Under the pieces are notes generated by a model. That model searched no databases. It was not told where the DNA came from and worked only from the letters and a program-made list of their open reading frames with translations. DNA of 64,000 nucleotides from an uncultured Bacteroidales bacterium (GTDB taxonomy: Bacteria > Bacteroidota > Bacteroidia > Bacteroidales > Paludibacteraceae): the NCBI GenBank assembly GCA_946544705.1, contig CAMNMN010000011.1, positions 2,408-66,407 of the forward strand, read 5' to 3'. Below are positions 3,001-57,363 of the stretch, in pieces (position 1 is the first letter of the stretch; each line of letters starts with the position of its first letter). A program made the position numbers and the translations under genes.

Positions 3001-3763
3001 CAAGGAGGTGGACGAGGCTTGGGTAGATAACACCGAGACGCATCTCTATAGCGGCACCTATGCCTTCGGCAACACGCCGAACAAGGCATACAAGGCTTAT
3101 ACGGGTTATGCCATCTGCTCCGACCAATCGACAGAGGCTACCGGCAATTATAACATTGACCAGTTCCGCTCGGCTGCGGGAGGCGCGTACGAAGGCAATA
3201 ACTACGCCGTAGCGTATTATTCCGCCCCGTCCGTTTGGTTCGCCGGTTATATGGATCCGATTCTGCTCACCAATAGTGCAGAGCCGCAAACGATCACCGG
3301 ATTCTATATCACCAACACCGTCTATACCCTTGACGCTATTCTCAACGGCGACTATGCCAGCGACGCTTTTGCGCAAGGCGACTATATGTCTGTTACCGCG
3401 AAGGGATACAACGGATCGGAGAAAACAGGTGAGGTGGTCTTCTATCTCGCGGACTACCGCTCCGAGAATGCCGACGAGCATTTCGCTCTCAATACCTGGA
3501 GATGGTTCGACCTCTCTTCGCTGGGCGCTATCACGCGGCTGGAGTTTGAACTCTTTACTACCAAGTCGGACGCTTATGGATTTACTACGCCGACCTATTT
3601 CTGTCTCGATAACTTCGGTGGTACCAGACCGTCCCCTGCGACGGACTTGGAGCAAGTCGCCAATGACCATTCACCAATCACCACTAAACTCCTCCTTGAC
3701 GGACAGATCTTCATCCTCCGTGGAGAACGGATGTTTGACCTCAACGGCCGCGTAATACGATAA
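2..3763 (+). CDS. Giant secreted surface protein (5' end outside window): parallel beta-helix repeat region, then a DUF4465-like module, then a short conserved C-terminal tail
   Basis: Open from the window edge. Repeated beta-helix rung motifs (VLNNTFRAE, IVNNAIYAANG, VAHNTIVLNAEG, FVNNIIQASGKG, FRHNILY). The C-terminal FEEYTL..YAVAYY..ITGFYITNTVYT..VVFYLADYR..WRWFDLSSLG..PTYFCLDNFGG resembles DUF4465 from memory. Ends KLLLDGQIFILRGERMFDLNGRVIR. Confidence 0.7.
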   Translation: MAQAQAASQVALTLETPLALAEYGNAFVLAADIKAGALVETDVDAALKSVTLSGETQTITAGDPEGARTVKNVRYLQAGDNGTVTIGENSLMFYDDGGADENYSSNFEGYITFVPATEGYAVELVFKDFDIAYLSGDPFHIYYANAYDAEAASDKKYGMYSKPAADESVISRAADGSLTVYVKMPSSRMRGFEVEVRQHLLTNLEVDSVLVTPMAPAEATKGTGDLRLMQAAVYVSGDRTPLTITAFEQTASDLLIDRHIYATGHSTTFSTANEFTGSYVMDEKGVYYFWFVGSVDAAAEVGNVVSLSLDNVALGEQKIAPQSAAAVSINVVSGAHGFYRVGASALADYATLTAALQAISTIGMDGAVEIAVEPGTYTEQVTLPEISGAGAANTITIRSLSGNYNDVTYQYNNTLTAEKGVFTIDGADYVTLKGLSFTSTYTSNQNPAVVIVRNAATHVTIDSCRIYAERMTEYTVRLDLLFVDAGENYYNNDFALTNSVLEGGYMGLRVTGHKAAADPLQQNMLISRNTFRNQGNQMLYGDAVSRLQVLNNTFRAEVKKSNCAAIDWLLIGDTAVIAGNDIYMTAEASDNLNYQALYFRPNSYQDKENAVLYIVNNAIYAANGSTYASYAVNLNSNLPKLLVAHNTIVLNAEGTAASPVYIQSAPVAGSLFVNNIIQASGKGYAIRYKNVGSIANTAFRHNILYTPEATFGMPTANVSTFADWKTAVGATDEDGNLNEAVTFASSTLLIPRETNDGHLLTAEVMASVPADITGKTRAATPSIGAYEYDADLFRVPVIAEGYPTANTQDTKADIVIKADNYGTAKVIVLPAESDAPAIEALAAATTEISLVKDGEVTFTATGLSEETGYKAYVLLFSPLGEAAAAYHELAFTTAWTLRPVVLNPIAKQTVAAGAAVTLTAVLATEYEQAKPYTYAWRTAFSDAVIGTEAFLALTADKATEYVCTVTDRFGQQAVVSAHVWVEKAAAAATFEEYTLAANGHKEVDEAWVDNTETHLYSGTYAFGNTPNKAYKAYTGYAICSDQSTEATGNYNIDQFRSAAGGAYEGNNYAVAYYSAPSVWFAGYMDPILLTNSAEPQTITGFYITNTVYTLDAILNGDYASDAFAQGDYMSVTAKGYNGSEKTGEVVFYLADYRSENADEHFALNTWRWFDLSSLGAITRLEFELFTTKSDAYGFTTPTYFCLDNFGGTRPSPATDLEQVANDHSPITTKLLLDGQIFILRGERMFDLNGRVIR

Positions 3764-3766
3764 GCC

Positions 3767-4750
3767 ATGCATGTGTTACTAACTATCTTATTGGCCGTTT
3801 CGCCCTATTTGGCGCGGGTGTATGAATATATGCCCGCGCCTGGGCAGTTCACCAACGCGATGCCGGCTGCTACAACGGACGATACGCCCGAGACGATGGC
3901 TGCTAAAGCCGAAGCCGCTATCGCTGACAACGCCGGAAAAACGGTCTGCCTTGGCGCGTGGGGCGGATATATTGTCTTCGGCTTTGACCATCCCGTTATC
4001 AATAGCGGTTCCGGATATGATTTCCGTATCACCGGCAATGCCTCTTATGCCTCCTATGCCAAAGATACTTCCCGCAAAGGAGGATCCGCCGAACCGGGCA
4101 TCGTCATGGTCAGCTATGATACCAACGGTAACGGCCTGCCGGACGACCCGTGGTACGAACTGGCTGGAAGCGAATATAACTCGCCTTCTACCGTCCGCCG
4201 GTATGCCGTCACTTATACCCGCCCTGACGGACTTGCAGATATACCTTGGACCGACAATCGGGGCGGCTCCGGGGTAGTACCGCGCAATAGTTTTCACCAA
4301 CAGGACTATTTCCCCCTTTGGGCACCCGACCAACTGACTTTCACCGGCTCGCTCTTGGCACCAAATGCCGTGGACGAGGGTGAGAACGGACAACACTCCT
4401 TCATTCTCTATTCCTACGACTACGGCTATGCCGACAACCATCCCAACAAAACCGACGGATGCAAGTTCTGCATCCGATGGGCGGTGGATAACAACGGCAA
4501 TCCCGTGAACCTGCCGGCTATCCATTTTGTCAAGGTCTATACGGCGCTCCAGCAGGTCTGCGGATGGATAGGCGAGACCAGTACGGAGATCACCGGAGCG
4601 GAGGACCTGCATCCCGACATGCTGCCTACGGGCCTGGACCCGTCACCCATGCCGACCCCAACGCATGCCAAGATCCTCCGGGACGGACAACTCTATTTGA
4701 AGTACGAAGGAAAGATGTATGATGTACGAGGTACCCGCATAAACCCGTAA
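3767..4750 (+). CDS. Secreted protein of unknown function, tightly coupled to the upstream DUF4465-like gene; carries the shared C-terminal tail
   Basis: ATG lies 4 nt after the upstream stop. Hydrophobic N-terminus MHVLLTILLAVSPYLA. Ends KILRDGQLYLKYEGKMYDVRGTRINP. Followed by a terminator hairpin. Confidence 0.65.
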   Translation: MHVLLTILLAVSPYLARVYEYMPAPGQFTNAMPAATTDDTPETMAAKAEAAIADNAGKTVCLGAWGGYIVFGFDHPVINSGSGYDFRITGNASYASYAKDTSRKGGSAEPGIVMVSYDTNGNGLPDDPWYELAGSEYNSPSTVRRYAVTYTRPDGLADIPWTDNRGGSGVVPRNSFHQQDYFPLWAPDQLTFTGSLLAPNAVDEGENGQHSFILYSYDYGYADNHPNKTDGCKFCIRWAVDNNGNPVNLPAIHFVKVYTALQQVCGWIGETSTEITGAEDLHPDMLPTGLDPSPMPTPTHAKILRDGQLYLKYEGKMYDVRGTRINP

Positions 4751-12511: not shown

Positions 12512-13366
12512 TTAAAGTTTAGCACCAAGCGCGTTGTATTTGACGCCGTTTTTGAGGATGACGAGTTGTCCGTTCTCAAAGAACTTAACAGCCTTGTTCT
12601 CTACAGCAGTGTTGCTGATAGCAGTTGGGAAATCGCCAACAAGCACGATGTCGGTTACGTTGAAAGCAGCACCTGCCTCTTTGTTGAACTGGATCATCCA
12701 GTGACCTGCGTTCGCCAAACGGTTACGGAGGTCATCGTTCAGCGGGAGCTCCATGTAGCCCTCACCTGCGGTCATGGCGTTTTGGTCAGCGATCTGGCCT
12801 TCCGGATCCCAGTTCTCTTTGATATTGATCACAAAATCCGAGCGGTTGGCCTCCGAATAGATACGCAGAGCAGTAGCCAGAGAGAAATCAACACCGGCGT
12901 ATCCGTTGTAATAGAGTTCGAGTGTGCTCCAATCATCAGCCCAGAAGAAACCGGTCCACACGGTAAAACCCTCTTTGAGCGCGTCCTTGCCGCTCTCCAA
13001 TGCCACTTGTGTGCAGTTGAAGTTGGCACCTATGATTTCCAGACCATAGGCCTTGAGACTATCGACAGCGGAGGAAGTAAGGAACTGCTCGAAAGAGCCG
13101 TCACCATTGATCCAAGCTGCCTCCCGACTACCTGCCAGGTGGTCGAAGTTAGCATTCATTACCTTGAACTCAATACCGTCGGAAGCGCCATTGAAATTGA
13201 CAATGATCTTCTGTCCGGGCTGTGCTTCTGCAAAGGACGCTGCAGGAATTTGAATACCGCCATCCGCCCAGGATACGTGCTTCGATCCTGTCCAAAGATC
13301 GTCTGCTTGGACATTCAATACGAGCGCTGCGAAGAGCGCAACAAGAGAAATTTTCTTCATAATCAA
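12512..13366 (-). CDS. Secreted two-module CBM-like protein of unknown function within the fructan locus; carries the shared C-terminal tail
   Basis: Signal peptide MIMKKISLVALFAALVLNVQA. Two internally similar segments (LWTGSKHVSWADGG.. and VWTGFFWADDW..). Ends KFFENGQLVILKNGVKYNALGAKL. Confidence 0.6.
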   Translation of the reverse strand: MIMKKISLVALFAALVLNVQADDLWTGSKHVSWADGGIQIPAASFAEAQPGQKIIVNFNGASDGIEFKVMNANFDHLAGSREAAWINGDGSFEQFLTSSAVDSLKAYGLEIIGANFNCTQVALESGKDALKEGFTVWTGFFWADDWSTLELYYNGYAGVDFSLATALRIYSEANRSDFVINIKENWDPEGQIADQNAMTAGEGYMELPLNDDLRNRLANAGHWMIQFNKEAGAAFNVTDIVLVGDFPTAISNTAVENKAVKFFENGQLVILKNGVKYNALGAKL

Positions 13367-21536: not shown

Positions 21537-21563
21537 ATTATGCTATCCTACGCATGTTGTGTA

Positions 21564-23731: not shown

Positions 23732-23764
23732 TTCAATTAAAAATTTAAAATTAAAAATTACGAA
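23732..23764. repeat. AT-rich heptamer-word spacer (rnfE/rnfA)
   Basis: ttcaattaaaaatttaaaattaaaaattacgaa fills the whole intergenic gap. It shares attaaaaattacgaatta with the spacers at 25986 and 27366. Confidence 0.75.
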
Positions 23765-24352: not shown

Positions 24353-24968
24353 GACCTACCTCCGTTTCTTCATTTTGTTCTTTATTCAATTGGCTGGCTC
24401 CGGTAGCGGCTTCTACCTCTTGGGCAGCGATAGCGGCATAGGCTTTGTTGATAGCCTTGAGGAAGGCCCGCGAAGAGATCGTAGCGGCCGTGATAGCATC
24501 CACTTCTCCTCCGTCTTTGGACACCGCGAGCGCACCGGCCTGGCGTCCGATAATATTTTGCGCCGGTTTATCGGCATGTTTGAACCAATGGTCGATATGC
24601 GCCCCCAGACCCGGAGTCTCGGTTTGCTTGAGGACCACATAGTCGAGCACTTTGCCTTCGGCATCGAGACCGACCATGATGACCTGCGGTCCGTCGAAAC
24701 CCACTTCGCTGGTCTCGACCGCGGTAGCAATCCATTGGTCGTCGATGAAGGCTTTGTAGATCGTCACCTCCTCCAGTTGCTCGGGTTCGGCAACGGTGCA
24801 TCCCTCAGGCAGGACAGCGAGGATAGCCGCCTGCTGTTTCTGCGCCTCCTGGAGGGCGATATTCTTCTCCGTAAGGATATAGACGCCGGCAAGCGCGCCT
24901 GCAGCAACCATAGCAATGATCACCAGGCTAAGAACCATGTTCTTAAATGTACTTTCCAATTTAGCCAT
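24345..24968 (-). CDS. rnfG: Rnf complex subunit G (FMN-binding)
   Basis: N-terminal TM helix plus the FMN-attachment motif VDAITAATISSRA. Confidence 0.9.
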   Translation of the reverse strand: MAKLESTFKNMVLSLVIIAMVAAGALAGVYILTEKNIALQEAQKQQAAILAVLPEGCTVAEPEQLEEVTIYKAFIDDQWIATAVETSEVGFDGPQVIMVGLDAEGKVLDYVVLKQTETPGLGAHIDHWFKHADKPAQNIIGRQAGALAVSKDGGEVDAITAATISSRAFLKAINKAYAAIAAQEVEAATGASQLNKEQNEETEVGHE

Positions 24969-24980
24969 AGCAGTACCTCC

Positions 24981-25985: not shown

Positions 25986-26021
25986 AATTAAAAATTAAAA
26001 ATTACGAATTAAAAATTTAAA
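25986..26021. repeat. AT-rich heptamer-word spacer (rnfC/rnfD)
   Basis: aattaaaaattaaaaattacgaattaaaaatttaaa. Confidence 0.75.
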
Positions 26022-41964: not shown

Positions 41965-42485
41965 TATTTCAGTTCTAACTCTATAATTACATTTTCGTAG
42001 GGAGGAATTTTGTCCGTTCCCTGCATGCCATACGCGGTGTACCATGGTACATACATCCTTACTCGGCAACCTTGGTGCCATTCTTTGATATGTACGTCTA
42101 CGGCCAGCGGCAGTTCGTGTTTGCCGATACGGTAGGTGCCTTCAATATCCTCGAGCAGTTGTTCCTCCAAGTTGAATATCCGCATGTGCACCACCCATTC
42201 GTCATCCACCTTTGGAGTCGGGCTGTCTATATCTCCTCTCTCCAAGATAGTAACCCATATGTTACCTTCGTATAAAGCATAAGGCTCCTTTTGTTCCAAT
42301 GCCTTTTGCATCAGCATTTTGTCGGCAGCTTCCGCCAATTCCTTATTCAGTTGCATTAGGGCCAATGCAGCGCTATCGACCTGAGGAGTCTCTCCTTTTC
42401 GTTGGCTTGGGCGTTGCGGGGCTTGATGGCTACAACCGGCTGTTATCAGTACCGCGCAGAGCCATATGAACCATTTTTTACTCAC
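41964..42485 (-). CDS. FKBP-like lipoprotein (putative peptidyl-prolyl isomerase fold)
   Basis: Lipoprotein signal LCAVLITAGC. The C-terminal block VRMYVPWYTAYGMQGTDKIPPYENVIIELEL resembles the FKBP C-terminus (P..AYG......IP.n..l.f.veL). Confidence 0.5.
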   Translation of the reverse strand: MSKKWFIWLCAVLITAGCSHQAPQRPSQRKGETPQVDSAALALMQLNKELAEAADKMLMQKALEQKEPYALYEGNIWVTILERGDIDSPTPKVDDEWVVHMRIFNLEEQLLEDIEGTYRIGKHELPLAVDVHIKEWHQGCRVRMYVPWYTAYGMQGTDKIPPYENVIIELELK

Positions 42486-45400
42486 TGTTACCTTTCCTTT
42501 CTAATGCAGCGCGGCGATATTCGCTTGGTGTAATACCGTAGGTGTTCTTGAAGCATTTAGCGAAATAGCGGCTATCGTTCATGCCTACCATATAGGTCAC
42601 CTCTGTGATATTATATTGCCGCTCTTCCAATAATTGTGCGGCGCGTTTGATACGCATTTCGCGGATGAACTCTACCGGACTGAGACCTGTCAGACTCTTC
42701 AGTTTGTTGAAGAATACGGTTCGTCCCATGCCCATCTCTTCCACCAGTTCGTCAACTGTCAGGGTGTTATTGTCCATCTGCTTTTCCATCACATCCAGCA
42801 GTTTGGCCAGGAAGGCATCGCCCGGAATAGGCTCGTCTGCCTTCTGCGGCTCTAATCGCATTAAGCGCTGACGATAACTCTGCTCCAGCTGATCGCGTTG
42901 CACCAAAATATTATGCACTCTCGCCCGTAAATATTCGGGTTCAAATGGTTTTGTGACGTAGTCATCCGCTCCGAAGTCCAATGCTTGCAACCGGCTCTCG
43001 ATGGCGGTCTTGGCGGTCAGCAGAATGACAGGGATAAAATCAAAATCCCTGTTCTGTTTGATCCATTGCGTCAACTGCAGACCATCAATCTTCGGCATCA
43101 TCAGATCGGTCACAACCAGATCTATCTGTTTGGTACGGATGATCTCTTCTGCCTCCTCTCCGTCCGCTGCAGACTCGATATGATAATCATGGCTCAATAT
43201 CTTGGTCAGGAAATTGCGCATGTCCGTATTGTCGTCCACTACCAGTATAGTCCGAGGCATGTCTTGTTGCTCTTGCTCCAACTGCTCCATTTTGTCTTCG
43301 AAGGTAGGCGCAACAGCAGCTTGAGCCGAAGAGATATCATCGGCAATAAACTCTACACTCTCGTCAAAATGCTCCTTCCCGGTATGGAGTAGGATAGTGA
43401 TCTTGGTACCTTTCCCTACCTCGCTCTCTACCTCTATATAGCCATGATGCAAGTCCACTAATTCTTTGGTAAGGTTCATTCCGATACCTGTGCCTGTGAT
43501 GCCGGAATTATTCAGTTCGTTATTGCTGGAGAATCGCTCAAAGAGCACGTTTCGTTTCTCGGGCGCGATGCCTACTCCTTCGTCTTCTACCGCCAGCGTC
43601 ACGAATCCCGGTTTGGAATCAATGATGACTCGGATGGATTTACCGGCCGGAGTGAATTTGAATGCATTACTCAGCAGATTCCACAAGACGGTATCCATAC
43701 GCTCGCGGTCCACCCAGACGGTCGAATCCTCCGTCCGGTTTTCAATCTCAAAATGGATATGTTTCTCGTAGGCTTCTTTGCGGAAATTGGCGCTGGTCTC
43801 TTCTACCAAACTGCTCAGCATCGTCTGCTGCAGTTTCAGTTTCATCTTCTGGTTCTGTACCTTGCGGAATTCCAGCAGTTGGTTTACCATCCGCAGCATT
43901 CGTTGGCCATTACTCTGTACAATCTCCAACTGGCTGCGCACACTTTGGCTGATGCGCTCGTTCTGAAGGATGTTTTCAATAGGTGCGACGATCAGAGTCA
44001 GCGGAGTACGTAACTCGTGGCTGATATTGGTGAAGAACCGGAGTTTGATATCCGTCACTTGTTGCTCCACTATTACTTTTTGTCTCAGTCCGTTATACAC
44101 CGATACCGCATAAGCTACAAGTCCGATAAATAATATAATTCCTATGATGTATAACAGGATAGCCCACCATGACAGCCATTCGGGGGTCTTCACATGAATT
44201 ACCAATTGTTGCTCATTCTCTACCTCGATTCCTTCCCTATTGGTAGAACGGACATGAAAGACATAAGTGCCGTGATGCAGGTTGTTGTACGTCACATGTC
44301 GTATATCTTGCGCTTGTCGCCATTCTTTGTCAATGCCGTCCATCTTGTAATAATATACTATCTGGCTGGCACCTACAAAGTCCATAGCTGAATATTCGAT
44401 CTCAATATTGCTCTTATGGGGAATAGAAATCGTATCATCATAGAGTAGCGAGTCGGCTACTTCTATCCTGGTGATTCGCAGCGGAGGAACAGATTCGGAC
44501 CGATGGATTCGGCTGGGATCAAAAGAACAATAGCCGTTCGAGTAACCAAATAAAATCTGTCCGTCGGGAATGAGCAACGCTTCCGCTTCCGTGAAATAGA
44601 TATTTGCTTCTCCGTCCAATGCATCGTAATAGTAGAGGTCGCCTGTCTCCAAGTTCAGCTGGGTGATATTACTCTCCGAGGTAAACCAAAGGTTCTCTTT
44701 GTCACATGTCATACTGAGGATAATATCCTGGTAGGTCTCTACATGTGTAATCTCATGCGTCGTCTCTTTGGGATCCAGCGTCAGCAATCCGCCGCCGAAG
44801 GAGCCGAGCCACAGCCGCCCGTGGCTGTAACATAGCGCGCGAATATCATAGCTGGGAATAACGGTGCATTCCATATTCTGCAGATTGACCTTTAGAATAC
44901 CGGTTGTGGTACCGCACCATAGGCAATCGTCTACCATCTCGATATCACGCACTTTCATGCCGTTGCCTACCACTTGAGGCGCACTCCATCGATGGCCTTC
45001 ATGCCGCAGGATATTCACTCCTCCGCCGTATGTGGCGATATACAATGTGCTGTCTTCGCCTTCTTCGATATCATAGATATCGGGATGAGTTGTCGGGATC
45101 CGTTGCCCTTTCGCGCTGAGCAGACCTTTGCCTTTCGTGCCGTACAGCATTCCGAACGAACTCTCTAAAGCGCAATAGACGTTCGTCTCGGATTTAATCA
45201 TCTTGAGCACTTCTCCCTGATGCGTAATAGCAAATGCACGTACTTCGCCATTGTCATTCGGGCTGCGTCGCATGTCGTGCAGTTGGTAAGGAGTAGGTTC
45301 CATGTTGATGCAATCAACACCGCCGTCGTAGGTGGATATCCACATCAACCCGTCACGGTCAACGTAGGCGGTGTGGATCATGTTGGTCAACCCTTCTATC

Positions 45401-46038
45401 GGATAGACCAGTTCGTCTTTCTCGTAGTCATAGTAGCTCCATCCTCCGCCTGTCGGGTTTACCCACGTGCGTCCCTGCGCATCTTCCAGTAAGAAGAAAT
45501 GCTGCCTCAGCAATCCCGCGTAGCGGCTGTCCAATGGAGGAGTGAAGCGCTTCCATTGGCCGAAGCGGTAACGTAATATACCGTATTGGTCATCTGATTG
45601 CCATATCACGCCGCGGGAGTCCACTTTGGTGTGCTGCTCCGCATCGCTTATCTTTACCAGCATTCCCTCCGGCAGACTGTCGTATGGCTCCTCTATCGTT
45701 TCTTTGCGCGAAGCATCCAGACGATAGTAATGACCATCATAGGTAGCCCACCAAATCCGCTCTTGCTCATCCTCATAAATCATGTCCACGCGGTTGTTTA
45801 CCTGTGCTTCCTGGCCATTATGCATCGCTTTGAAGGTAACGAACTCATATCCGTCAAACCGGTTAAGGCCGTCCCATGTGCCAAACCACATGAAACCTTG
45901 CTTGTCCTGCATGATGGCCATCACAGTATTCTGGCTCATGCCGTCCTTGATGGAGTAATGCTGAACCACATAATGCTCATTCGCGCTGAGGCTTAGGGCG
46001 CATATTAGCACGCAGAGCGAAAGAATGAAACGCTTCAT
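42478..46038 (-). CDS. Hybrid two-component system regulator (periplasmic beta-propeller/Y_Y_Y sensor, HisKA, HATPase, REC, AraC HTH)
   Basis: H-box FTNISHELRTPLTLI, G-box GTGIGMNLTKELVDLHHG, receiver ILVVDDNTDM..DLVVTDLMMPKIDG, C-terminal AraC HTH. Confidence 0.93.
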   Translation of the reverse strand: MKRFILSLCVLICALSLSANEHYVVQHYSIKDGMSQNTVMAIMQDKQGFMWFGTWDGLNRFDGYEFVTFKAMHNGQEAQVNNRVDMIYEDEQERIWWATYDGHYYRLDASRKETIEEPYDSLPEGMLVKISDAEQHTKVDSRGVIWQSDDQYGILRYRFGQWKRFTPPLDSRYAGLLRQHFFLLEDAQGRTWVNPTGGGWSYYDYEKDELVYPIEGLTNMIHTAYVDRDGLMWISTYDGGVDCINMEPTPYQLHDMRRSPNDNGEVRAFAITHQGEVLKMIKSETNVYCALESSFGMLYGTKGKGLLSAKGQRIPTTHPDIYDIEEGEDSTLYIATYGGGVNILRHEGHRWSAPQVVGNGMKVRDIEMVDDCLWCGTTTGILKVNLQNMECTVIPSYDIRALCYSHGRLWLGSFGGGLLTLDPKETTHEITHVETYQDIILSMTCDKENLWFTSESNITQLNLETGDLYYYDALDGEANIYFTEAEALLIPDGQILFGYSNGYCSFDPSRIHRSESVPPLRITRIEVADSLLYDDTISIPHKSNIEIEYSAMDFVGASQIVYYYKMDGIDKEWRQAQDIRHVTYNNLHHGTYVFHVRSTNREGIEVENEQQLVIHVKTPEWLSWWAILLYIIGIILFIGLVAYAVSVYNGLRQKVIVEQQVTDIKLRFFTNISHELRTPLTLIVAPIENILQNERISQSVRSQLEIVQSNGQRMLRMVNQLLEFRKVQNQKMKLKLQQTMLSSLVEETSANFRKEAYEKHIHFEIENRTEDSTVWVDRERMDTVLWNLLSNAFKFTPAGKSIRVIIDSKPGFVTLAVEDEGVGIAPEKRNVLFERFSSNNELNNSGITGTGIGMNLTKELVDLHHGYIEVESEVGKGTKITILLHTGKEHFDESVEFIADDISSAQAAVAPTFEDKMEQLEQEQQDMPRTILVVDDNTDMRNFLTKILSHDYHIESAADGEEAEEIIRTKQIDLVVTDLMMPKIDGLQLTQWIKQNRDFDFIPVILLTAKTAIESRLQALDFGADDYVTKPFEPEYLRARVHNILVQRDQLEQSYRQRLMRLEPQKADEPIPGDAFLAKLLDVMEKQMDNNTLTVDELVEEMGMGRTVFFNKLKSLTGLSPVEFIREMRIKRAAQLLEERQYNITEVTYMVGMNDSRYFAKCFKNTYGITPSEYRRAALERKGNSE

Positions 46039-48056: not shown

Positions 48057-48059
48057 GTG

Positions 48060-48132
48060 TGGTGCCAACGGGAATCGAACCAGTGACACAAGGATTTTCA
48101 GTCCTTTGCTCTACCAACTGAGCTATGGCACC
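48060..48132 (-). tRNA. tRNA-Phe (anticodon GAA)
   Basis: Reverse complement GGTGCCATAGCTCAGTTGGTAGAGCAAAGGACTGAAAATCCTTGTGTCACTGGTTCGATTCCCGTTGGCACCA. It has a 7-bp acceptor stem, a canonical D-arm and anticodon loop CTGAAAA. CCA is not encoded. Confidence 0.95.
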
Positions 48133-49191: not shown

Positions 49192-50697
49192 ATGAAAAAG
49201 ACGATTCTTTTAGTATTTTCCATATTTTTGCTCGCGGGTGCGAGTGCGTTGAACGCGGATAACAGAAGCGCTGCCAAAGCGGATGGAGTATCGTCCAAGG
49301 CCGGTGTGCCTGCGGAATGCGAAGATGTCATGTTGCAGGCATTCTATTGGGACAGTTACAAGGCTAAGACGAGCACGGACAGCAAGTTCGGTCGTACGAA
49401 ATGGATTGATTTGCTCAAAGACACGGCGGCCATCAATGCCAATTTTGACGTCGTATGGTTTCCGCCAAGTGCCGGTCCGACGGGTTGCGGCGTGGGTTAC
49501 TCCGCCAAGCAGTATAGCAATCAGGAGAGCGACTGGGGTACCAAAACGGCGTTGAGCAACCTGATTAACGCGCTGCATAAAGGCAATACCAAGGTGCTGG
49601 CGGATGTAGTGCTGAACCATCGCGGTAACCTGTCGAATTGGTGCAATTTCTGGACGGATAACTTCGGCAGTTACGGTACGTTTACCTTGACGCAGAAAGA
49701 GATCTGCCGTAACGACGAGGGCTTTACGAATACGAAATCCTCTTGTTACGGCGCGGACTATACAGACCGCGGAGCGAACGATACGGGCGATAATTTTGAT
49801 GGTGCACGCGATTTGGATCATCAGAGCGAGGTGGTACAAAACTGGTCGAAGGCTTATACGCAATGGTTGTTGAACACGATGAAATACGACGGATTCCGGT
49901 ACGATATGACCTTGGGTTTCCATGGTCGGTATCTGAAGATGTACAACGAAGCGGCTCAGCCGTATATGTCCGTTTCGGAGTTGTGGCAAAGTATAAATCG
50001 TCAGAAACAGCATTTGGAAGAGTGCGAATATAATACGATGGTGTTTGATTTCCAGGCGAAATACTCGATGAAGGGGATCGTAACCGGTTCGTACGGCAAG
50101 TTGAATGCAAACAAGGCGTTTGAGGGGCTGCGCAAGCATGGTCTGGAGCGTTATTCGGTGACGTTCATCGACAACCATGATACGTTTGACCGCGGGACGG
50201 CGTACGGCGATAACCAGTTTACCCCGACTACTGATCTGACGACAACGACGAACAAAGATTACGTTTTGCAGGCGAGTGCGTATATGCTGATGATGCCCGG
50301 TGTACCGTGTGTGTTCTATCCGCATTGGGCGAGTTACAAGGAGGAAATCAATGAGTTGATTGCCGTTCGCAAGCGTGTAGGAATTCATAGTGAGTCGGAC
50401 GTGCTGGAGGAGACGAGCGGACAGTATCAATATAGCGCAACGGTTCAGGGACATCGCGGCAAGGTGATCGTGCGTGTAGGCAAATACCGCAGTAAGACGC
50501 AGCCGGAAGGGTATGAGTTGGCGGTAGAAGGCGGAGACAGAGGTAATTACACCGTATATGTTAGCATGGATCAGCAGGGCGTGGAGGAAGTTGATCTTCC
50601 GGAGACCGGTGTTCGAAAGATTATTTACAACGGGCAGGTGTATTTCCTCCGCGAAGGCAAGACGTATACCTTAACCGGAAGTGAAATAAAAGAATGA
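49192..50697 (+). CDS. Secreted GH13 alpha-amylase with the shared C-terminal tail
   Basis: Signal peptide. GH13 regions DVVLNHRG, DGFRYDMTLG, VSELWQ, FIDNHDT, and an MLQAFYWDSY N-terminus. Ends KIIYNGQVYFLREGKTYTLTGSEIKE. Confidence 0.9.
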   Translation: MKKTILLVFSIFLLAGASALNADNRSAAKADGVSSKAGVPAECEDVMLQAFYWDSYKAKTSTDSKFGRTKWIDLLKDTAAINANFDVVWFPPSAGPTGCGVGYSAKQYSNQESDWGTKTALSNLINALHKGNTKVLADVVLNHRGNLSNWCNFWTDNFGSYGTFTLTQKEICRNDEGFTNTKSSCYGADYTDRGANDTGDNFDGARDLDHQSEVVQNWSKAYTQWLLNTMKYDGFRYDMTLGFHGRYLKMYNEAAQPYMSVSELWQSINRQKQHLEECEYNTMVFDFQAKYSMKGIVTGSYGKLNANKAFEGLRKHGLERYSVTFIDNHDTFDRGTAYGDNQFTPTTDLTTTTNKDYVLQASAYMLMMPGVPCVFYPHWASYKEEINELIAVRKRVGIHSESDVLEETSGQYQYSATVQGHRGKVIVRVGKYRSKTQPEGYELAVEGGDRGNYTVYVSMDQQGVEEVDLPETGVRKIIYNGQVYFLREGKTYTLTGSEIKE

Positions 50698-50708
50698 AAG
50701 GGAGGACG

Positions 50709-52544
50709 ATGAAGAGGTTTTTAAATTTAATAGTGTTAGCGTGCGCTTGCGCGAGTGTGTGGGCGAGCAACTATGGTATTTTGGTGAACGGCAATACCTA
50801 TTTTGCCGGAGAACCGGCGGGTGAGTATGAGGGATTTCAGCAGTACTTGGCGCATGTGCAGGTGTCTAATGGCGACCAGTTCCAGTTGTATGACGCGGAA
50901 AATCAAGCGGCATGGGCTGTAGATCTGAATACTTATTCTGTAGCAGGATTCACGCGTTCGGGCGATCATTATGTATCGAGCGTGAGTGGCTGCTATGATT
51001 TTTATATCAAACTGAAATGGGAACAAGATGAGTTGTATATAGGCAATGGTTCGAATTGCGGAGCCGGCGAAGATATACATGATATCTATACGGGCGCCGT
51101 TCCTCGCCAGTGTGAAGCGGTGATGATGCAGGCTTTTTATAACGAGTCGTATAGTGCTACTTCGCCGGGTGTGAGCGAGTATGGCGATACCAAATGGACT
51201 ACTTTGACGCCTCAAGCAACCGAGTTGGGCCGGTATTTCGACTATATATGGTTGCCGCCGAGTGCGTACGGAGACGGTGCAGGGTACCATCCGAAACAAT
51301 ACAGCAACCAGAACTCCAACTGGGGCACGCGCGCAGAACTGGATGCGCTGATAAGTGCGTTGCATAACGCGGGAACCAAAGTGGTGGCGGACATCGTGAT
51401 CAACCACTGCGCGAACAAGAGTACTTGGTGCGATTTCTACGAGATGGATTTCGGCGAATACGGCGTGTTCCATCCGGATGAGACGTATATCTGTTCGAAT
51501 GACGAGGTGAATGCCGAATGGAACCGACCGACGGCAACGAGCGATGGTTCAGGCGCTTGTTGGGGAACGGCTTCCGGTAGTCCGGATGACGGAGATAACT
51601 GGGACGGCGCACGCGACTGGAGTCATGACAAAGTGTATGTGCAGCAGATGTTCATCGCTTATCTGCAATGGATGCGCAATGTGATGCACTATGACGGCTT
51701 CCGCTATGACAAAGGCGACGGTTTCAATAACTGGCATCATTATAACTATAACAAACATGCGAAGCCGGAGATCGCTTTCATGGAGAGTTATAACGGTACC
51801 GATGCTATCCAGGGACAGATTAACGGCGCGCAGGGTGATCTGATGGCTCTTGATTTTGATCTCAAATGGCATGTGTTCAATTCGTTTGCCGGCTGGGATT
51901 ACAGCCGCGGTCGCGGAGACTGTTTGATGAGTCGCGGTGACGGAAAACATTCGGTTACGTTCATTGAGAGTCACGACTGGTTCCTTCGGCCGGATAACGA
52001 GAATGAGTTCGGCGGACGCGGCAATTCCATGACTCCGGCGCTGAAAGGTCGTCTGATGCAGGCGAACGCTTTTCTGCTGTCCATGCCGGGTGTGCCGTGT
52101 GTGTTCTATCCGCATTGGGCGAAATACAAAGCCGATCTGAAACCGATGATTATTGCTCGCAAATGGGCAGGCGTACACAGCGAAAGCGAAGTGCGGGATG
52201 AGTATTCGACCGCTACGGGTTATCAGGCTACGGTAGTAGGAAAGAACGGATGGCTCATCCTGTGTCTGGGAGATAGAGCGAACGGGCAAGGTTTCGGTCC
52301 GGACTATCAGTTGGCGGCAAGTAACTACAACACGCAAGACGGACATAATGAGAGTTTCGAGATTTGGGTGAATAGTTCGAAGGAGAAACCGAATCCCGAA
52401 CTCAATACGGGTATAGAACAGCCTACCTCCGACTCCTCTATACAGGGAAGAGGGGAGAAATTCGTCAAGGACGGCCAACTCTATATTCGCTGTGGCGAAC
52501 AGGTGTATGATATAATGGGACAACAAATAAATAAAATACGATGA
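50709..52544 (+). CDS. Secreted GH13 alpha-amylase with the unassigned ~100-aa N-terminal module and the shared C-terminal tail
   Basis: Signal peptide MKRFLNLIVLACACASVWA (an alternative ATG at 50694 overlaps the upstream stop). DIVINHCA, DGFRYDKGDG, FMESYNG, FIESHDW. Ends KFVKDGQLYIRCGEQVYDIMGQQINKIR. Confidence 0.88.
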   Translation: MKRFLNLIVLACACASVWASNYGILVNGNTYFAGEPAGEYEGFQQYLAHVQVSNGDQFQLYDAENQAAWAVDLNTYSVAGFTRSGDHYVSSVSGCYDFYIKLKWEQDELYIGNGSNCGAGEDIHDIYTGAVPRQCEAVMMQAFYNESYSATSPGVSEYGDTKWTTLTPQATELGRYFDYIWLPPSAYGDGAGYHPKQYSNQNSNWGTRAELDALISALHNAGTKVVADIVINHCANKSTWCDFYEMDFGEYGVFHPDETYICSNDEVNAEWNRPTATSDGSGACWGTASGSPDDGDNWDGARDWSHDKVYVQQMFIAYLQWMRNVMHYDGFRYDKGDGFNNWHHYNYNKHAKPEIAFMESYNGTDAIQGQINGAQGDLMALDFDLKWHVFNSFAGWDYSRGRGDCLMSRGDGKHSVTFIESHDWFLRPDNENEFGGRGNSMTPALKGRLMQANAFLLSMPGVPCVFYPHWAKYKADLKPMIIARKWAGVHSESEVRDEYSTATGYQATVVGKNGWLILCLGDRANGQGFGPDYQLAASNYNTQDGHNESFEIWVNSSKEKPNPELNTGIEQPTSDSSIQGRGEKFVKDGQLYIRCGEQVYDIMGQQINKIR

Positions 52545-54379
52545 AAAAAACAGGATTGATTTTAGTGGCCATGTTGTGCTGTGCGATGGGATGGGCAGCA
52601 AGTTATGGCATTTTGGTGAACGGGAAGATGTATTTCGCCGGAAGTTTAGTGGATGAGTTTGAGGGTTTTACCCAGTATCTGGCACATGTACAGGTGTCGA
52701 AGGGAGATTACTGCCAGCTCTATGACGCGGATAACAAAGCGGCTTGGGCAGTGGCGTTGAATACCTATTCGGTACCCGGATTTACGTATGATGCCTCGGC
52801 GAACCGCTATACGGTTTCGGTGGATGGTTGCTATGATTTCTACATCAAGTTGAAGTACGAGCAGGATGAGTTGTATATCGGTGACGGCTCTAATTGCGGT
52901 GAAGGTCAGGACATCAGTGGCGGCGGAGAGATAGACCCGGGTTATTCGGGTTCGGCTCCGGCACAATGTCCGGATGTGATGCTGCAGGCATTCTATTGGG
53001 ACAGTTATAACGGATCGCTGCCGACGACCAAATACGGTCGTACCAAATGGATAGACCTGGTCAACGGTAACAGCGGTTCGAGTGCTGAAGAAATGGGGCA
53101 ATGGTTCGATATGGTATGGTTACCGCCTATGTCGGCCGGTAGCGGTACGGGATATCACCCGACCAACTACGGAAGACTGGAAAGCGATCGTGGAACAAAA
53201 TCCAAGTTGGTGGAACTGATAGAGATCCTGCATAAGAACGGTGCACGCGTGATAGCGGATATTGTGATCAACCATGCGGATGCGCAAGAGGGATGGTGTA
53301 ACTTCAAGTCGTATGACTTTGGTTCGTACGGTAAGTTTACACCCGACGGGTCGTATATCTGCAGCACGGACGAGATGAATACATCTGCTCCTACGACGGC
53401 CTGTCGCGGTTATGCTACGGGGGCCGCGGACGACGGTTACGGCGACGAGGCGAACTATGCCGCGTCACGCGACTGGGATCATACGAATGCTGAGGTGCGC
53501 GATATGTTCAAGGCATATCTCAAATGGATGCGTAATGAAGTCAAAGTGGACGGTTTCCGCTATGACTACTGCAAGGGATATCACAACAGCCATATCAATG
53601 AGTATAACCGCGCGGCTGAGGCTTATTTCAGTGTCATGGAATACTGGGACGGTAATGTGAATACGCTCCAGAGCCGTCTGAGCGATGCCGGATGGAATAC
53701 CGCTACCTTCGATTTTGCCACCAAATATACGGCGTTCAATGACGGTATAGCAGCTGACAACTATTGGAAACTGCAGGGCGCCGGTCTGCCGGGTGCAGGC
53801 AAGGCACGTTACGCCGTGACGTTTATCGACAGCCATGACGGTTTCCAGCGCAATGACAATGAGTTCTGCGGCAACGGCAACTCCATGACGATTTGTAAGG
53901 ACAAGGTGCTCATCTGCAATGCTTATATGCTGTCGATGCCGGGTGTGCCGTGTGTGTTCTGGCCGCACTGGGTGACCTTCAAGGACCAAATAAAGAAGAT
54001 GATCAACGCCCGCTATAAAACAGGCGTACACAGCGAGAGCAGTGTGACCGACGAATCGGTAGGAGACGGCTACTACAAGGCTACTATCAACGGTACGAAC
54101 GGTTCGATCCGTCTGTTGTTAGGTCCCAACTCGGGGTATAACTCGACACCGTCGGGTTACACGTTAGCAGTAAAAGGAACCAACTACGGCGTATATTACA
54201 AGTCGGACGGAACGCGCGGAGACAAGAACACCGAGCGCAAAGACCGCACGCAGGGCATCGAAGAGATCACCTCCGGATCTTCCCTCCAAGGGAAAGGGGA
54301 GAAGTTCATCCAGGATGGTCAGTTGCTGATCCGGGTGGGTGAACAGGTGTTTGATGCGTTCGGACGCAGAGTGAAGTAA
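52541..54379 (+). CDS. Secreted GH13 alpha-amylase, paralog with the same N-terminal module and C-terminal tail
   Basis: ATGA start/stop overlap with the upstream gene. DIVINHAD, DGFRYDYCKG, VMEYWDG, FIDSHDG. Ends KFIQDGQLLIRVGEQVFDAFGRRVK. Confidence 0.9.
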   Translation: MKKTGLILVAMLCCAMGWAASYGILVNGKMYFAGSLVDEFEGFTQYLAHVQVSKGDYCQLYDADNKAAWAVALNTYSVPGFTYDASANRYTVSVDGCYDFYIKLKYEQDELYIGDGSNCGEGQDISGGGEIDPGYSGSAPAQCPDVMLQAFYWDSYNGSLPTTKYGRTKWIDLVNGNSGSSAEEMGQWFDMVWLPPMSAGSGTGYHPTNYGRLESDRGTKSKLVELIEILHKNGARVIADIVINHADAQEGWCNFKSYDFGSYGKFTPDGSYICSTDEMNTSAPTTACRGYATGAADDGYGDEANYAASRDWDHTNAEVRDMFKAYLKWMRNEVKVDGFRYDYCKGYHNSHINEYNRAAEAYFSVMEYWDGNVNTLQSRLSDAGWNTATFDFATKYTAFNDGIAADNYWKLQGAGLPGAGKARYAVTFIDSHDGFQRNDNEFCGNGNSMTICKDKVLICNAYMLSMPGVPCVFWPHWVTFKDQIKKMINARYKTGVHSESSVTDESVGDGYYKATINGTNGSIRLLLGPNSGYNSTPSGYTLAVKGTNYGVYYKSDGTRGDKNTERKDRTQGIEEITSGSSLQGKGEKFIQDGQLLIRVGEQVFDAFGRRVK

Positions 54380-54419
54380 ATTATAATTACAAGTTGTTAA
54401 ATAACAAAATAACACTATT

Positions 54420-55295
54420 ATGAAAAAGATTTTTACATTATTGGCTGCGGTTGCAGTTGCAGCTTGTGCGATGGCCGGCAGTTACGGCATCTTAGTGAAC
54501 GGAACCACCTATTTCGCAGGTGAGCCTGCCGGTGAGTTCGAGGGTTTTCAACAGTATTTGGCGCATGTGCAGGTGAAGTCCGGTGACTTCTGCCAGCTCT
54601 GCGACGCGGAGAACAGGGCCGTATGGGCGGTAGATCTCAACACGGCTTCGGTAGAGGGATTCACCCGTAACGGAAACCAGTACAGTGTGGCGGTGGACGG
54701 TTGCTATGACTTCTACATCAAGTTGAAGTACGAGCAGGACGAGTTGTATATCGGTCCGGGTTCCGACTGCGGTGAAGGTATTGATATCAGCGGTGGCGGC
54801 CAAGGCGGTCAAGGCGGAGATGAGGATGTGGACTTCTACGCTATCGGTTGGATCAACGGAGCCGACCACGGAGAGGCTGCGTACGACACGTACGAGGATG
54901 AGTACCTGTTTGTGGATGGTAAGTTAACAATCGACTGCAAGATGGGTAGCTATATCGCTATCAAGGACCATCTGGGTAATTTCTATTACTCCAAGACCGA
55001 GACAACGATTGCCAACGAGTCGGTCACGATGGACTGGGCAAACGGATGGACTCCTTGCCAGAAATGGGCTATCCCGGAGGGTGTGAACTATATCATTATC
55101 CGCGAAGCGGCATGCAAGGGACAGATCAAGTTGGAGCGCGTGGACAAGGCTACCTATGATGCGTATCATTTCGGCGGCGACCAAGCTATCGAGAACACGA
55201 CCGTTAATGAGAAAGCACACAAAGTGGTAATTAACGGTCAGTTGCGTATCGTCCGCGGCGATAAGATATTTGACGCTACCGGACGTGAGTTATAA
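54420..55295 (+). CDS. Secreted non-catalytic protein: shared N-terminal module, Gly-rich linker, second beta-rich module, shared C-terminal tail
   Basis: Signal peptide. The N-terminal 99 aa are homologous to the two upstream amylases. No GH13 regions. Linker GGGQGGQGGDED. Ends KVVINGQLRIVRGDKIFDATGREL. Confidence 0.8.
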   Translation: MKKIFTLLAAVAVAACAMAGSYGILVNGTTYFAGEPAGEFEGFQQYLAHVQVKSGDFCQLCDAENRAVWAVDLNTASVEGFTRNGNQYSVAVDGCYDFYIKLKYEQDELYIGPGSDCGEGIDISGGGQGGQGGDEDVDFYAIGWINGADHGEAAYDTYEDEYLFVDGKLTIDCKMGSYIAIKDHLGNFYYSKTETTIANESVTMDWANGWTPCQKWAIPEGVNYIIIREAACKGQIKLERVDKATYDAYHFGGDQAIENTTVNEKAHKVVINGQLRIVRGDKIFDATGREL

Positions 55296-55341
55296 GAAGA
55301 CCGTAAGCAAAAAAAGGACGTAATCCAGAAAAAATATCACA

Positions 55342-57363
55342 ATGAAAAAGATTTATATACTGATAGCAGTCCTCGTTTATGCGGCGGGGGTGTTGGCTGC
55401 TAACTGGAATGATGTGGCAGGTGTTGAGCCGGTAGAGCGTACCCGTCCTGCAGGTGTGACGAATGGTATTTACTATGGTGCGGATGGCACTTCCGTGACC
55501 CTATGTACCTATGCCGCCAGCAAAACGCAATCCGCCAAGCGCGTGTTCCTGTTGGGCGATATGACCAACTGGAAACTCAGCGCGGACTATCAGTTGTTCA
55601 AAGACGGTAATTATTTCTGGATTACGTTAACCGGTTTAACTCCCGGACAGGAGTATCGTTTCCAGTACGCGGTAGAGCGTGCGGATGGTTTGAAAAAACA
55701 GATCTCGGATCTGTATTCGGAGAAAGTGCTGCACCCGGACGATCAGTATGAACCGAAGAAAGTGGATCCCAATTTATTGGATTATCCTGCAGGCAAAGGC
55801 GCAGACGGCTATGTGACGGTTATCCAGCCGGGCAAGCCGAAGTACCAATGGTCGGATGCTACGCTCCATTTTCAGCGTCCGAACAAGAACAACCTCGTTA
55901 TCTACGAGTTGTGGATCTATGATTATACCGAAGGACGCTCGTTGAAGGGATTGATGAAGCGTCTGGATTATATCCAAAACTTGGGTGTGAATGCGGTGGA
56001 GTTGATGCCGATTTGCGAGTTTGACGGAAACTATAACTGGGGTTATTCGCCGAACCATTATTTTGCGCCGGATAAAGCGTACGGCACGGAGGAGATGTAC
56101 AAGACGTTCATCGATGAGTGTCATAAACGCGGCATGGCGGTGATCCTTGATATGGTTTTCAACCATGCTACGGGACTCAATCCGATGAACAAACTCTATC
56201 CGTATGGTTCGGATTTGGCGAATAACCCGTGGTTTAACGTCAACGCGCCGCATAGCGATAATGTCTATGAGGACTGGAATCACGGTTTCGAGCCGGCGCA
56301 TGAGATGTTTATCCGGGCGTTGAAGTATTGGTTAACGGAGTACAAGGTGGATGGTTTCCGTTTGGATCTCAGTCATGGTCTTTGTTCGGACAAACCGAAT
56401 ACCTCGGTGGGCAACCTCAAGGACTATTACGACAAAGGCGTCAAGGCCGTTTCTCCCGATGCGTATATGATCTGTGAGCACTGGGGCAGTAATATGGGGA
56501 CGGAGCGTCCTCAGTTGGTCAGCTACGGTATGCAGTGCTGGTCGAATACGTCTAATGCGTATTGCCAGACAGCGATGGGATGGCTCAAGGATGGTGACGG
56601 TTTTGGAGAAGCCAATAAAGACGGCTATGTATCTTATTGCGAGAGCCACGATGAAGAGCGAATGCAGTACAAAGTGAAGCAGTACGGAAACGGAGACCTG
56701 AAGACCAATACCGCTGCTCGTCTGGCGCGTGTGCCGGAGAACGTAGCGTTCAATGTGCTGCTGAACGGATCGCATATGCTTTGGATGTGGGAGGAGGTCG
56801 GTTATGACTTCTCAATCAACTGTGATATCGACCATCCCAATGCGTACAACGAGAGCTATCGATGCAGCAAGAAACCCCGTCCGGAGATTCGCTCCTATTT
56901 CACCAATAAGGACCGTGTGGCGGCGTTTACCAAGTGCGCGCAAGTGATAACCCTGCGTACGCAGTTGATGCCGGGGGTCTTCGAGGGTAACCCGACGAGT
57001 CAAAATATCAGTTCCGGGGACAAACTGCGTAAGATCCAATGGGGCAGCAATGTGTTTGCTGCGGCGAATTTCGATGTGACGAGCAATCAAGCCGTCACGC
57101 TGCCTTCCGGTACATGGTACGACTATCTGAACGGCGCTACGCGCGCTAACGGCACTTATACCCTTGCTCCGGGTGAGTTGAAGGTCTTTACCGGTACGCC
57201 GGTTATTGCGCCGACATTTGAGGATATCAACAAACGTGAAACGCAGGGTTTTGAAGAAGTACAAATGGATCAAGTACCAAGTACCAAGTTCTTCCACGAC
57301 GGGCAGATTCTCATTCGCCGCGGAGACAATATCTATACGATTACGGGCGAGCGCGTAAAATAA
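55342..57363 (+). CDS. Secreted GH13 enzyme (pullulanase/neopullulanase-like, with an N-terminal Ig-like/CBM48-like domain) carrying the shared C-terminal tail
   Basis: DMVFNHAT, VDGFRLDLSHG, MICEHWG, YCESHDEE. Ends KFFHDGQILIRRGDNIYTITGERVK. Confidence 0.88.
   Translation: MKKIYILIAVLVYAAGVLAANWNDVAGVEPVERTRPAGVTNGIYYGADGTSVTLCTYAASKTQSAKRVFLLGDMTNWKLSADYQLFKDGNYFWITLTGLTPGQEYRFQYAVERADGLKKQISDLYSEKVLHPDDQYEPKKVDPNLLDYPAGKGADGYVTVIQPGKPKYQWSDATLHFQRPNKNNLVIYELWIYDYTEGRSLKGLMKRLDYIQNLGVNAVELMPICEFDGNYNWGYSPNHYFAPDKAYGTEEMYKTFIDECHKRGMAVILDMVFNHATGLNPMNKLYPYGSDLANNPWFNVNAPHSDNVYEDWNHGFEPAHEMFIRALKYWLTEYKVDGFRLDLSHGLCSDKPNTSVGNLKDYYDKGVKAVSPDAYMICEHWGSNMGTERPQLVSYGMQCWSNTSNAYCQTAMGWLKDGDGFGEANKDGYVSYCESHDEERMQYKVKQYGNGDLKTNTAARLARVPENVAFNVLLNGSHMLWMWEEVGYDFSINCDIDHPNAYNESYRCSKKPRPEIRSYFTNKDRVAAFTKCAQVITLRTQLMPGVFEGNPTSQNISSGDKLRKIQWGSNVFAAANFDVTSNQAVTLPSGTWYDYLNGATRANGTYTLAPGELKVFTGTPVIAPTFEDINKRETQGFEEVQMDQVPSTKFFHDGQILIRRGDNIYTITGERVK
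57271..57290 (+). repeat. Short GTAC-word array in frame just before the C-terminal tail
   Basis: caagtaccaagtaccaagtt, encoding QVPSTKF. Confidence 0.6.

Follow-up and report, generated by a model that had tools for sequence, protein, structure and literature searches.

Five consecutive genes of an α-glucan cluster encode proteins that end in the same C-terminal motif, which raises the question of what a short C-terminal tail might do on so many otherwise different secreted proteins. The cluster (49192..57363, + strand) lies in a 64,000-nucleotide stretch of contig CAMNMN010000011.1 (GCA_946544705.1) from an uncultured Bacteroidales bacterium, hereafter called the window. It comprises four GH13 enzymes and one non-catalytic protein, all five of which have SPI-type signals and the tail. 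No SusC/SusD gene is in the cluster, and a hybrid two-component sensor lies upstream at 42478..46038 (-). A sequence-only reading had proposed that these five proteins and three others in the window share a C-terminal motif resembling a sorting or anchoring signal, either a compact or truncated type IX secretion system (T9SS) C-terminal domain (CTD) or a distinct tag. We asked whether the motif is real, how far it extends and what it most probably does.

A C-terminal tail shared by eight proteins

All eight C-termini were confirmed as proposed. The protein ends are at 3760, 4747, 12515 (- strand), 50694, 52541, 54376, 55292 and 57360, each followed directly by a stop codon, and they conform to K-h-h-x-[DN]-G-Q-h-x-I-x-R-x-G-x-x-[YF]-x-x-x-G-x-x-[VI]-[KR]. 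K, G, Q and the last G are invariant in the alignment. An HMM built from the eight 24–28-residue tails was run with filters off against all 1,370 stop-to-stop ORFs of at least 25 aa in six frames. It scored 39–51 bits on exactly these eight sites, each at the extreme C-terminus, whereas the next best hit scored 4.9 bits. This is far beyond chance.

Within the α-glucan cluster, the 501-aa GH13 α-amylase (ORF 49192..50697) carries the tail at 50578..50694 (+), with a GVEEV block followed by KIIYNGQVYFLREGKTYTLTGSEIKE and the stop (44.8 bits). In the 616-aa (or 611-aa) GH13 amylase (ORF 50694..52544) the tail occupies 52410..52541 (+), with a GIEQP block and KFVKDGQLYIRCGEQVYDIMGQQINKIR (50.8 bits), and in the 612-aa GH13 amylase (ORF 52541..54379) it occupies 54254..54376 (+), with a GIEEI block and KFIQDGQLLIRVGEQVFDAFGRRVK (47.8 bits). 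The 291-aa non-catalytic protein (ORF 54420..55295) ends in an AIENT block and KVVINGQLRIVRGDKIFDATGREL at 55185..55292 (+; 44.6 bits); among 119 homologues of this protein the tail is as conserved as the folded core, while the linker is variable. The 673-aa CBM48-GH13 enzyme (ORF 55342..57363) ends in a GFEEV block and KFFHDGQILIRRGDNIYTITGERVK at 57247..57360 (+; 48.0 bits).

The three remaining tails are found elsewhere in the window. A DUF4465/β-helix giant protein (ORF 2..3763, N-terminus outside the window) carries a DLEQV block, a spacer and KLLLDGQIFILRGERMFDLNGRVIR at 3644..3760 (+; 43.9 bits). A 327-aa protein (ORF 3767..4750) carries a GLDPS block and KILRDGQLYLKYEGKMYDVRGTRINP at 4631..4747 (+; 46.6 bits). 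A 284-aa protein (ORF 12512..13366, - strand), encoded inside a fructan PUL, carries an AISNT block and KFFENGQLVILKNGVKYNALGAKL at 12515..12622 (-; 39.2 bits). In this PUL the two GH32 enzymes are lipoproteins, while the 284-aa accessory protein has an SPI signal plus the tail.

The sequence-only reading had assigned N-terminal signal peptides to all eight proteins, which required two corrections. The giant protein runs off the window; its full length is 2039–2065 aa, and a related contig shows a classic signal peptide, MKKKYFFLLLLVIGWLGSTAMA. The 327-aa protein (3767–4747) has only an atypical hydrophobic N-terminus with no basic residue, and its orthologues are the same. Seven of the eight proteins, not all eight, therefore have clear Sec signals. 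The weak upstream block (G/A-h-[ED]-x) is also real: in 248 non-redundant tails from elsewhere, 227 have it, mostly 12–14 residues before the conserved K.

Distribution and carriers of the tail

To find out whether the tail is a local feature, we performed a profile search among 1.84 billion representatives, which gave 11,034 clusters (50% identity) at E<=1e-3. The top hits carry no source names or taxonomy, but 147 of the best 150 have the match at the very end of the protein. A frame-blind DNA pattern hit 119 stretches in GTDB genomes, all from uncultured Bacteroidales/Paludibacteraceae MAGs. Of its 124 matches, 123 have the stop codon 20–23 codons after [DN]GQ, and 118 have it at exactly 21. 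In those loci, 126 of 127 HMM hits end within 4 residues of the stop, and the last residue is K or R in 206 of the 248 non-redundant tails. The pattern is absent from 2.9 million viral contigs, and a tblastn search of the consensus tail against plasmids found nothing relevant.

The carriers are surface or secreted types typical of T9SS cargo. Of 69 scanned, 36 have BspA-type LRR_5, 12–13 have Listeria-Bacteroides repeats, and others have fn3, CBM26, Big_2, an M4 peptidase or an amylase domain. By a crude test, 54 of 71 complete ORFs in related loci have an N-terminal signal. The signals are SPI-type: only 4 of 103 tail proteins are lipobox-like, against 17 of 61 non-tail secreted proteins from the same loci (Fisher p=1.6e-5). 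The tail proteins therefore largely lack the other main Bacteroidota route to the surface. No gene family recurs next to tail genes in the 119 loci, as expected for a signal served by central machinery.

Secretome and CAZyme-localisation predictions for Bacteroidota rely on lipoprotein signals and on the TIGR04183 and TIGR04131 models. In this lineage, recovered mainly from ruminant guts, such tools would label these amylases, giant adhesin-like proteins and PUL accessory proteins as periplasmic or unknown; NCBI names them 'hypothetical protein'. An HMM of the tail would re-annotate more than 11,000 protein clusters. Literature searches on Paludibacter, Paludibacteraceae or RF16 together with T9SS found no description of this motif.

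Comparison with known C-terminal signals

Adding upstream sequence does not turn the tails into ordinary T9SS CTDs. Whole proteins and their last 100 residues gave no hit to TIGR04183, TIGR04131, NF033708 or PF18962 at E<=10, and consensus tails likewise gave none to the type A models. DUF4465 and the amylase C-domain end 48–52 residues before the stop, leaving too little sequence for the 67–108-residue, seven-strand 3+4 β-sandwich of type A CTDs. AlphaFold2 instead predicted three antiparallel strands, a β-meander, for the last 27 residues of the 673-aa enzyme (pLDDT 90–94), preceded by a linker of about 30 residues that is predicted to be disordered (pLDDT about 55). PDB sequence searches and Foldseek gave no significant match for the tail.

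The tail nevertheless resembles type A CTDs (TIGR04183 / PF18962 Por_Secre_tail) in its extreme C-terminal position on Sec-exported, non-lipoprotein Bacteroidota proteins, in its kinds of cargo (BspA-like LRR proteins, glycoside hydrolases, peptidases), in its predicted all-β structure and in a basic residue at or near the C-terminus. In sequence, the only resemblance is the h-[YF]-D-x-x-G-R-x-V end, which aligns with motif B (the β3–β4 loop). This is not significant, as hhalign aligned only 9–13 columns at 1–8% probability; judged by this alignment, motifs A, D and E appear to be absent, or not in the same order. A circular-permutation relation to type A motifs D then B, and a collinear mapping to strands β1–β4, were also considered, but neither has statistical support.

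Type B (TIGR04131) and type C (NF033708, ChiA-like) CTDs show that the T9SS accepts several unrelated classes of C-terminal signal, some of them lineage-restricted. The NF033708 model was active in our search, because it gave a weak hit to a canonical CTD. Type B needs about 100 to over 200 residues and is often paired with adjacent PorP/SprF-like genes, but no such neighbour was seen in the 119 loci. For ChiA, the region shown to be needed for secretion is about 100 residues (PMC10202324). The T9SS targeting signal of Porphyromonas gingivalis HBP35 was localised to the last 22 residues of its CTD (PMC11285876), a stretch similar in size to the conserved unit here. In HBP35, however, it is part of a full sandwich domain, whereas here nothing else is present.

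The same MAGs also encode proteins with canonical type A-like CTDs. TIGR04183 is their best hit (E 2e-4 to 0.04), and their profile finds the PDB CTDs 8glk_D and RgpB 5hfs. A review states that CTD proteins correlate with T9SS core genes (PMC10202324). No T9SS gene lies in the window, and two candidate outer-membrane proteins scanned in the related loci carry DUF3078 and a trypsin-like peptidase domain. The presence of a T9SS in this lineage rests only on three canonical CTD hits below the curated cut-offs. A word-indexed protein search returned only 23 short fragments with the tail profile, only relatives at 77% identity or more with the 291-aa protein, and 7 close relatives with the canonical CTDs; none of these could show orthologues carrying a canonical CTD in place of the tail.

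Possible roles of the tail

Every part of the sequence-only interpretation that could be tested held, and we consider it somewhat more likely than not that the tail is a compact C-terminal sorting module of about 40 residues. It consists of a [TQ]-G-[IV]-[ED]-x-[VI] block, a spacer of about 8 residues before the conserved K, and a 24–28-residue unit predicted to fold on its own into the three-strand β-meander, almost always ending in V-K or V-R at the free C-terminus. Many Sec-exported, non-lipoprotein surface and extracellular proteins of uncultured rumen and gut Paludibacteraceae-like Bacteroidales carry it. In the proposed mechanism, the signal peptide takes the protein to the periplasm, where the tail would be recognised by the outer-membrane export and attachment machinery, most likely the T9SS, and the protein would be placed on the cell surface or released. 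The tail would then act as a lineage-specific fourth class of T9SS signal, or as a drastically reduced type A signal. Both the sorting function and the use of the T9SS are inferred, without experimental or proteomic evidence. The tail is not detectably homologous to any CTD class, it cannot form the seven-strand sandwich reported as essential in P. gingivalis (PMC11285876), and one carrier (3767–4747) lacks a clear Sec signal.

It is about as likely as not that the 27-residue meander, with its free basic C-terminus, is sufficient on its own for recognition, either by the T9SS through a dedicated shuttle or by a separate pathway. It would then be a previously undescribed class of export and surface-attachment signal, defining a large hidden secretome in rumen Paludibacteraceae (RF16-like) that current CTD models miss entirely. 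A tag of 27–40 residues would be the smallest Bacteroidota export or anchoring signal known, could reveal which part of a CTD the translocon actually reads, and would be a convenient fusion tag for surface display.

A less likely possibility is that the tail is a docking or retention module unrelated to T9SS recognition, binding a surface receptor, LPS, capsule or a scaffold protein non-covalently, as a dockerin binds cohesin, while export uses some other signal. Like the type I dockerin of cellulosomal proteins, the tail is a short C-terminal module, and it sits on a very broad set of enzymes, LRR proteins and peptidases, as dockerins do in rumen Firmicutes. It is predicted to fold independently after a flexible linker, appears exchangeable between orthologues and is not detectably homologous to any CTD. 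However, the nearly invariant distance to the stop codon and the conserved terminal K/R point to recognition of a free C-terminus, which binding modules do not usually need. With few lipobox-like signals and no other recognisable outer-membrane export signal, a second, unknown export signal would be required in this Gram-negative host. No Dockerin or other binding-domain model hit the tails, no Ca-binding repeat is present, the predicted fold is all-β, and no conserved neighbouring receptor gene was found.

A C-terminal pro-peptide acting as an intramolecular chaperone, a periplasmic quality-control tag or degron read by a PDZ protease, or a donor strand for polymerisation as in type V pili, is improbable. 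The strictly free C-terminus and the small predicted β structure would suit PDZ recognition or strand exchange. However, the carriers have unrelated folds and sizes (about 280 to over 2,200 aa), which does not fit a fold-specific chaperone or pilin, the end is basic rather than hydrophobic or aromatic, unlike most PDZ or OMP β-signals, and no pilin domains were found among the carriers scanned. A full-length AlphaFold2 model of the 291-aa protein was poor (mean pLDDT 51) and does not show how the tail sits relative to the body; its Foldseek hits were all non-significant, with SusE/SusF and an amylase at the top.

It is very unlikely that the tails are ordinary but divergent full-length type A CTDs missed by the models. 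Although the canonical CTDs of this lineage themselves score below the curated cut-offs and the end of the tail resembles motif B, those CTDs are still found by TIGR04183 and by a PDB search, while the tails get nothing, and both the length left after the last recognised domain and the predicted three-strand fold speak against it. Finally, chance similarity, DNA repeats or gene conversion, for which we found no support, are refuted by the HMM scores, by the thousands of independent occurrences and by the use of different codons at the conserved residues, with a nucleotide identity between copies of 42–62%, showing that conservation acts on the peptide.

Conserved tails and their carriers in the window

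The window has a GC content of 51% and is near-identical to a Paludibacteraceae MAG (GCA_002395805.1, contig DGVB01000012.1) and to several rumen-type metagenome contigs. The MAG contig ends at about position 59392, whereas the window continues to 64000 and thus comes from a different and more complete assembly of a near-identical genome.

The sequence-only reading had proposed that eight proteins share a C-terminal motif, and all eight end exactly as it described, each directly before a stop codon. In an alignment of the last 45 residues, K, G, Q and the last G are invariant. To test whether the motif is confined to these sites, we built an HMM from the eight 24–28-residue tails and ran it with filters off against every stop-to-stop ORF of at least 25 aa in all six frames (1,370 ORFs). 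The HMM scored 39–51 bits on these eight sites, all at the extreme C-terminus, while the next best hit scored 4.9 bits. Nucleotide identity between the tail-coding segments is only 42–62%, and conserved residues use different codons. Selection therefore acts on the peptide, and the pattern is not a DNA repeat or the product of recent gene conversion.

Four GH13 enzymes and one 291-aa non-catalytic protein form a five-gene cluster at 49192–57363, which has no SusC/SusD genes. A tRNA-Phe gene lies just upstream of this amylase cluster (48059–48132, minus strand). The 616-, 612- and 291-aa proteins of the cluster share an N-terminal domain of about 100 residues (SYGILVNG...YIGxGSxCGEG; approximately 50760–51070, 52600–52910 and 54480–54790) with no Pfam hit. 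The structural model of the 291-aa protein is poor; its top Foldseek hits are SusE/SusF and an amylase, but none is significant (E>=0.05), so that a starch-binding role is only a hint.

A DUF4465 protein with weak beta-helix-like Pfam signal runs off the left edge of the window. Its full length is 2039–2065 aa, and a related contig shows a classic signal peptide. It is followed directly by a 327-aa protein (3767–4747), whose orthologues are called ‘PKD domain-containing protein’ by NCBI; the window's proteins are named ‘hypothetical protein’. Orthologues of the 327-aa protein that fall in one 90%-identity cluster carry clearly different tail sub-types (...KILRDGQLYLKYEGKMYDVRGTRINP, ...KILINGQIHILRGEKVYNAQGALVK and ...KILRDGQFLILRGEKAYTLTGQTLW), and the tail seems to be swapped between genes as a cassette.

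The remaining carrier, a 284-aa protein, sits inside a fructan utilisation locus (8787–23033) that comprises a PfkB kinase, an MFS transporter, two GH32 lipoproteins, a DUF4960/DUF5018 protein, SusD, SusC and a periplasmic-binding/AraC-type regulator. It lies between the two GH32 genes, where a surface glycan-binding lipoprotein would normally be expected. The two GH32 enzymes have lipoprotein signals, whereas the tail protein does not. Elsewhere, the window encodes an Rnf/Nqr-type electron-transport operon on the minus strand (23129–27365; RnfC, RnfD, an FMN-binding subunit and two Rnf-Nqr membrane subunits) and, near its right end, a DUF3987 protein (61138–62388, plus strand), which may indicate an integrated element.

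The sequence-only reading had assigned N-terminal signal peptides to all eight proteins. Seven of the eight have clear signal-peptidase-I-type signals; the 327-aa protein and its orthologues have only a hydrophobic N-terminus with no basic residue.

Distribution and predicted structure of the tail

To evaluate the spread of the tail, a profile of 44 positions was searched against 1.84 billion representative proteins. A total of 11,034 clusters scored at E<=1e-3, and 92 at E<=1e-10. In 147 of the best 150, the match ends at or within a few residues of the C-terminus. As a test that ignores gene calls, a degenerate DNA pattern for [DN]GQ[LI][FY]ILRG[DE]K was scanned over one genome per GTDB species. 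All hits are from uncultured Bacteroidales, Paludibacteraceae or Bacteroidia MAGs of cattle, sheep, goat, yak, deer, buffalo and pig, although this taxonomic restriction is provisional because the genome scan was incomplete. Of 124 matches, the in-frame stop lies 20–23 codons after the [DN]GQ in 123, and at exactly 21 in 118. Among 1,010 ORFs in those loci, 127 carry the tail, and 126 of these end within 4 residues of it. In some of the loci (L015, L041, L071, L074 with two copies, L091 and L097), tail-coding segments are preceded by only 4–68 in-frame codons; these are probably frameshifted or truncated genes, or leftover cassettes. The pattern is absent from 2.9 million viral contigs, and the consensus tail has no relevant match in plasmids.

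From 248 non-redundant tails, the consensus is K-[IVF]-[LIV]-x-[ND]-G-Q-[IL]-[FYL]-I-L-R-G-[ED]-K-x-Y-[TDN]-x-[TQ]-G-[QR]-[EL]-V-[KR]. G, Q and the last G are present in 98–100%, and K or R is the last residue in 206 of 248. A G-[IV]-[ED]-x-[VI]-like block is present in 227 of 248, starting mostly 12–14 residues before the K. The last 60 residues of the 673-aa enzyme were modelled with AlphaFold2, using 31 tails as the alignment. The last 27 residues were predicted with a pLDDT of 90–94 as three antiparallel strands (34–39, 42–47, 50–53) plus a terminal bridge, while the linker and the G-F-E-E-V block had a pLDDT of about 55. Among 119 homologues of the 291-aa protein, the tail is as conserved as the folded core and the linker is the most variable part. 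Foldseek found no significant PDB match for the tail, and no CTD.

Asking what kinds of protein carry the tail, we scanned 69 tail proteins of at least 250 aa against Pfam. Of these, 36 have BspA-type LRR_5, 24 have LRR_8 and 12–13 have Listeria-Bacteroides repeats; others have fn3, CBM26, Big_2, Fn3_assoc, CHB_HEX_C, beta-helix repeats, an M4 peptidase or an amylase domain. This is a surface and extracellular repertoire. Most complete ORFs start with M-K/R-K followed by a hydrophobic stretch. Only 4 of 103 have anything like a lipobox, against 17 of 61 non-tail secreted proteins from the same loci (Fisher p=1.6e-5). The tail proteins therefore reach the periplasm by Sec, are not lipoproteins, and are of kinds that act outside the cell. 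In Bacteroidota, the established route for such proteins is the T9SS (reviewed in PMC10202324).

Comparison with known T9SS signals

Whole proteins, their last 100 residues and consensus tails gave no hit at E<=10 to TIGR04183 (T9SS type A), TIGR04131 (type B), NF033708 (type C) or PF18962. DUF4465 and the amylase C-terminal domain end 48–52 residues before the stop, so a CTD of 67–108 residues (PMC11285876) cannot fit. A search with the tail profile found nothing meaningful among PDB sequences.

No T9SS gene lies in the window, and the link between this lineage and the T9SS was assessed from the fetched loci rather than from whole genomes. In these loci, three proteins from MAGs that also carry tails end in type A-like CTDs; the loci are L033 (UBA4331), L039 (RGIG1586, in the same 8-kb stretch as a tail gene) and L111 (RUG644). 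TIGR04183 is the best NCBIfam hit for all three (E 2e-4, 1e-3 and 0.04; all below the cut-off), and their joint profile picks out the CTD of F. johnsoniae NucA (8glk_D) and RgpB (5hfs, 5ag8) from the PDB. The lineage thus seems to have T9SS cargo of the usual kind, and the tail is a second, far more frequent class in the sampled DNA. As the canonical type A-like CTDs of this lineage score below the curated cut-offs of both TIGR04183 and PF18962, even its ordinary T9SS cargo would be under-called by standard annotation.

Profile–profile comparison of the tail with these CTDs and with RgpB aligned only the last 9–13 columns. The segment h-[YF]-D-x-x-G-R-x-V aligns to motif B (the beta3–beta4 loop) at 1–8% probability. 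This is the resemblance noted in the sequence-only reading, which had likened the end of the tail to one early strand of the type A CTD; it is not evidence of homology. No gene family recurs next to tail genes, so there is no sign of a PorP-like partner encoded in cis.

A possible minimal sorting signal

The near-fixed distance to the stop codon, the conserved basic end, the independent predicted fold after a flexible linker, and the occurrence on unrelated Sec-exported non-lipoproteins are together the signature of a sorting signal that needs a free C-terminus. The most economical mechanism is recognition by the T9SS, as an undescribed minimal, lineage-specific class of signal; both the sorting role and the use of the T9SS are inferred, and we consider this reading only somewhat more likely than not. 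As a precedent, the T9SS targeting signal of HBP35 was localised to the last 22 residues of its CTD (PMC11285876). The known classes are A, B and C (PMC10202324). No model in Pfam-A (2025 copy), NCBIfam release 20 or the PDB matches the tail, and seven literature searches found no description of it. We place it among the C-terminal sorting domains of Bacteroidota, as a variant of these that has not been described, but there is a real chance that it is a separate class with its own recognition partner.

The main alternative, a docking or retention module with export by other means, is possible but appears unlikely. An ordinary CTD missed by the models, and chance, are rejected.

A second short tail was noticed in a 524-aa ORF on contig CAMHSB010000002.1. 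This secreted protein, which by eye resembles a metallophosphatase, ends in GIERPVEEWLNPQWYDIMGRQVREPVPGQVVIRKNHKQVNQ and also has no NCBIfam hit. Its tail shares the G-I-E block but has the Y-D-x-x-G-R-x-V and G-Q-h-h-I-R elements in the opposite order.
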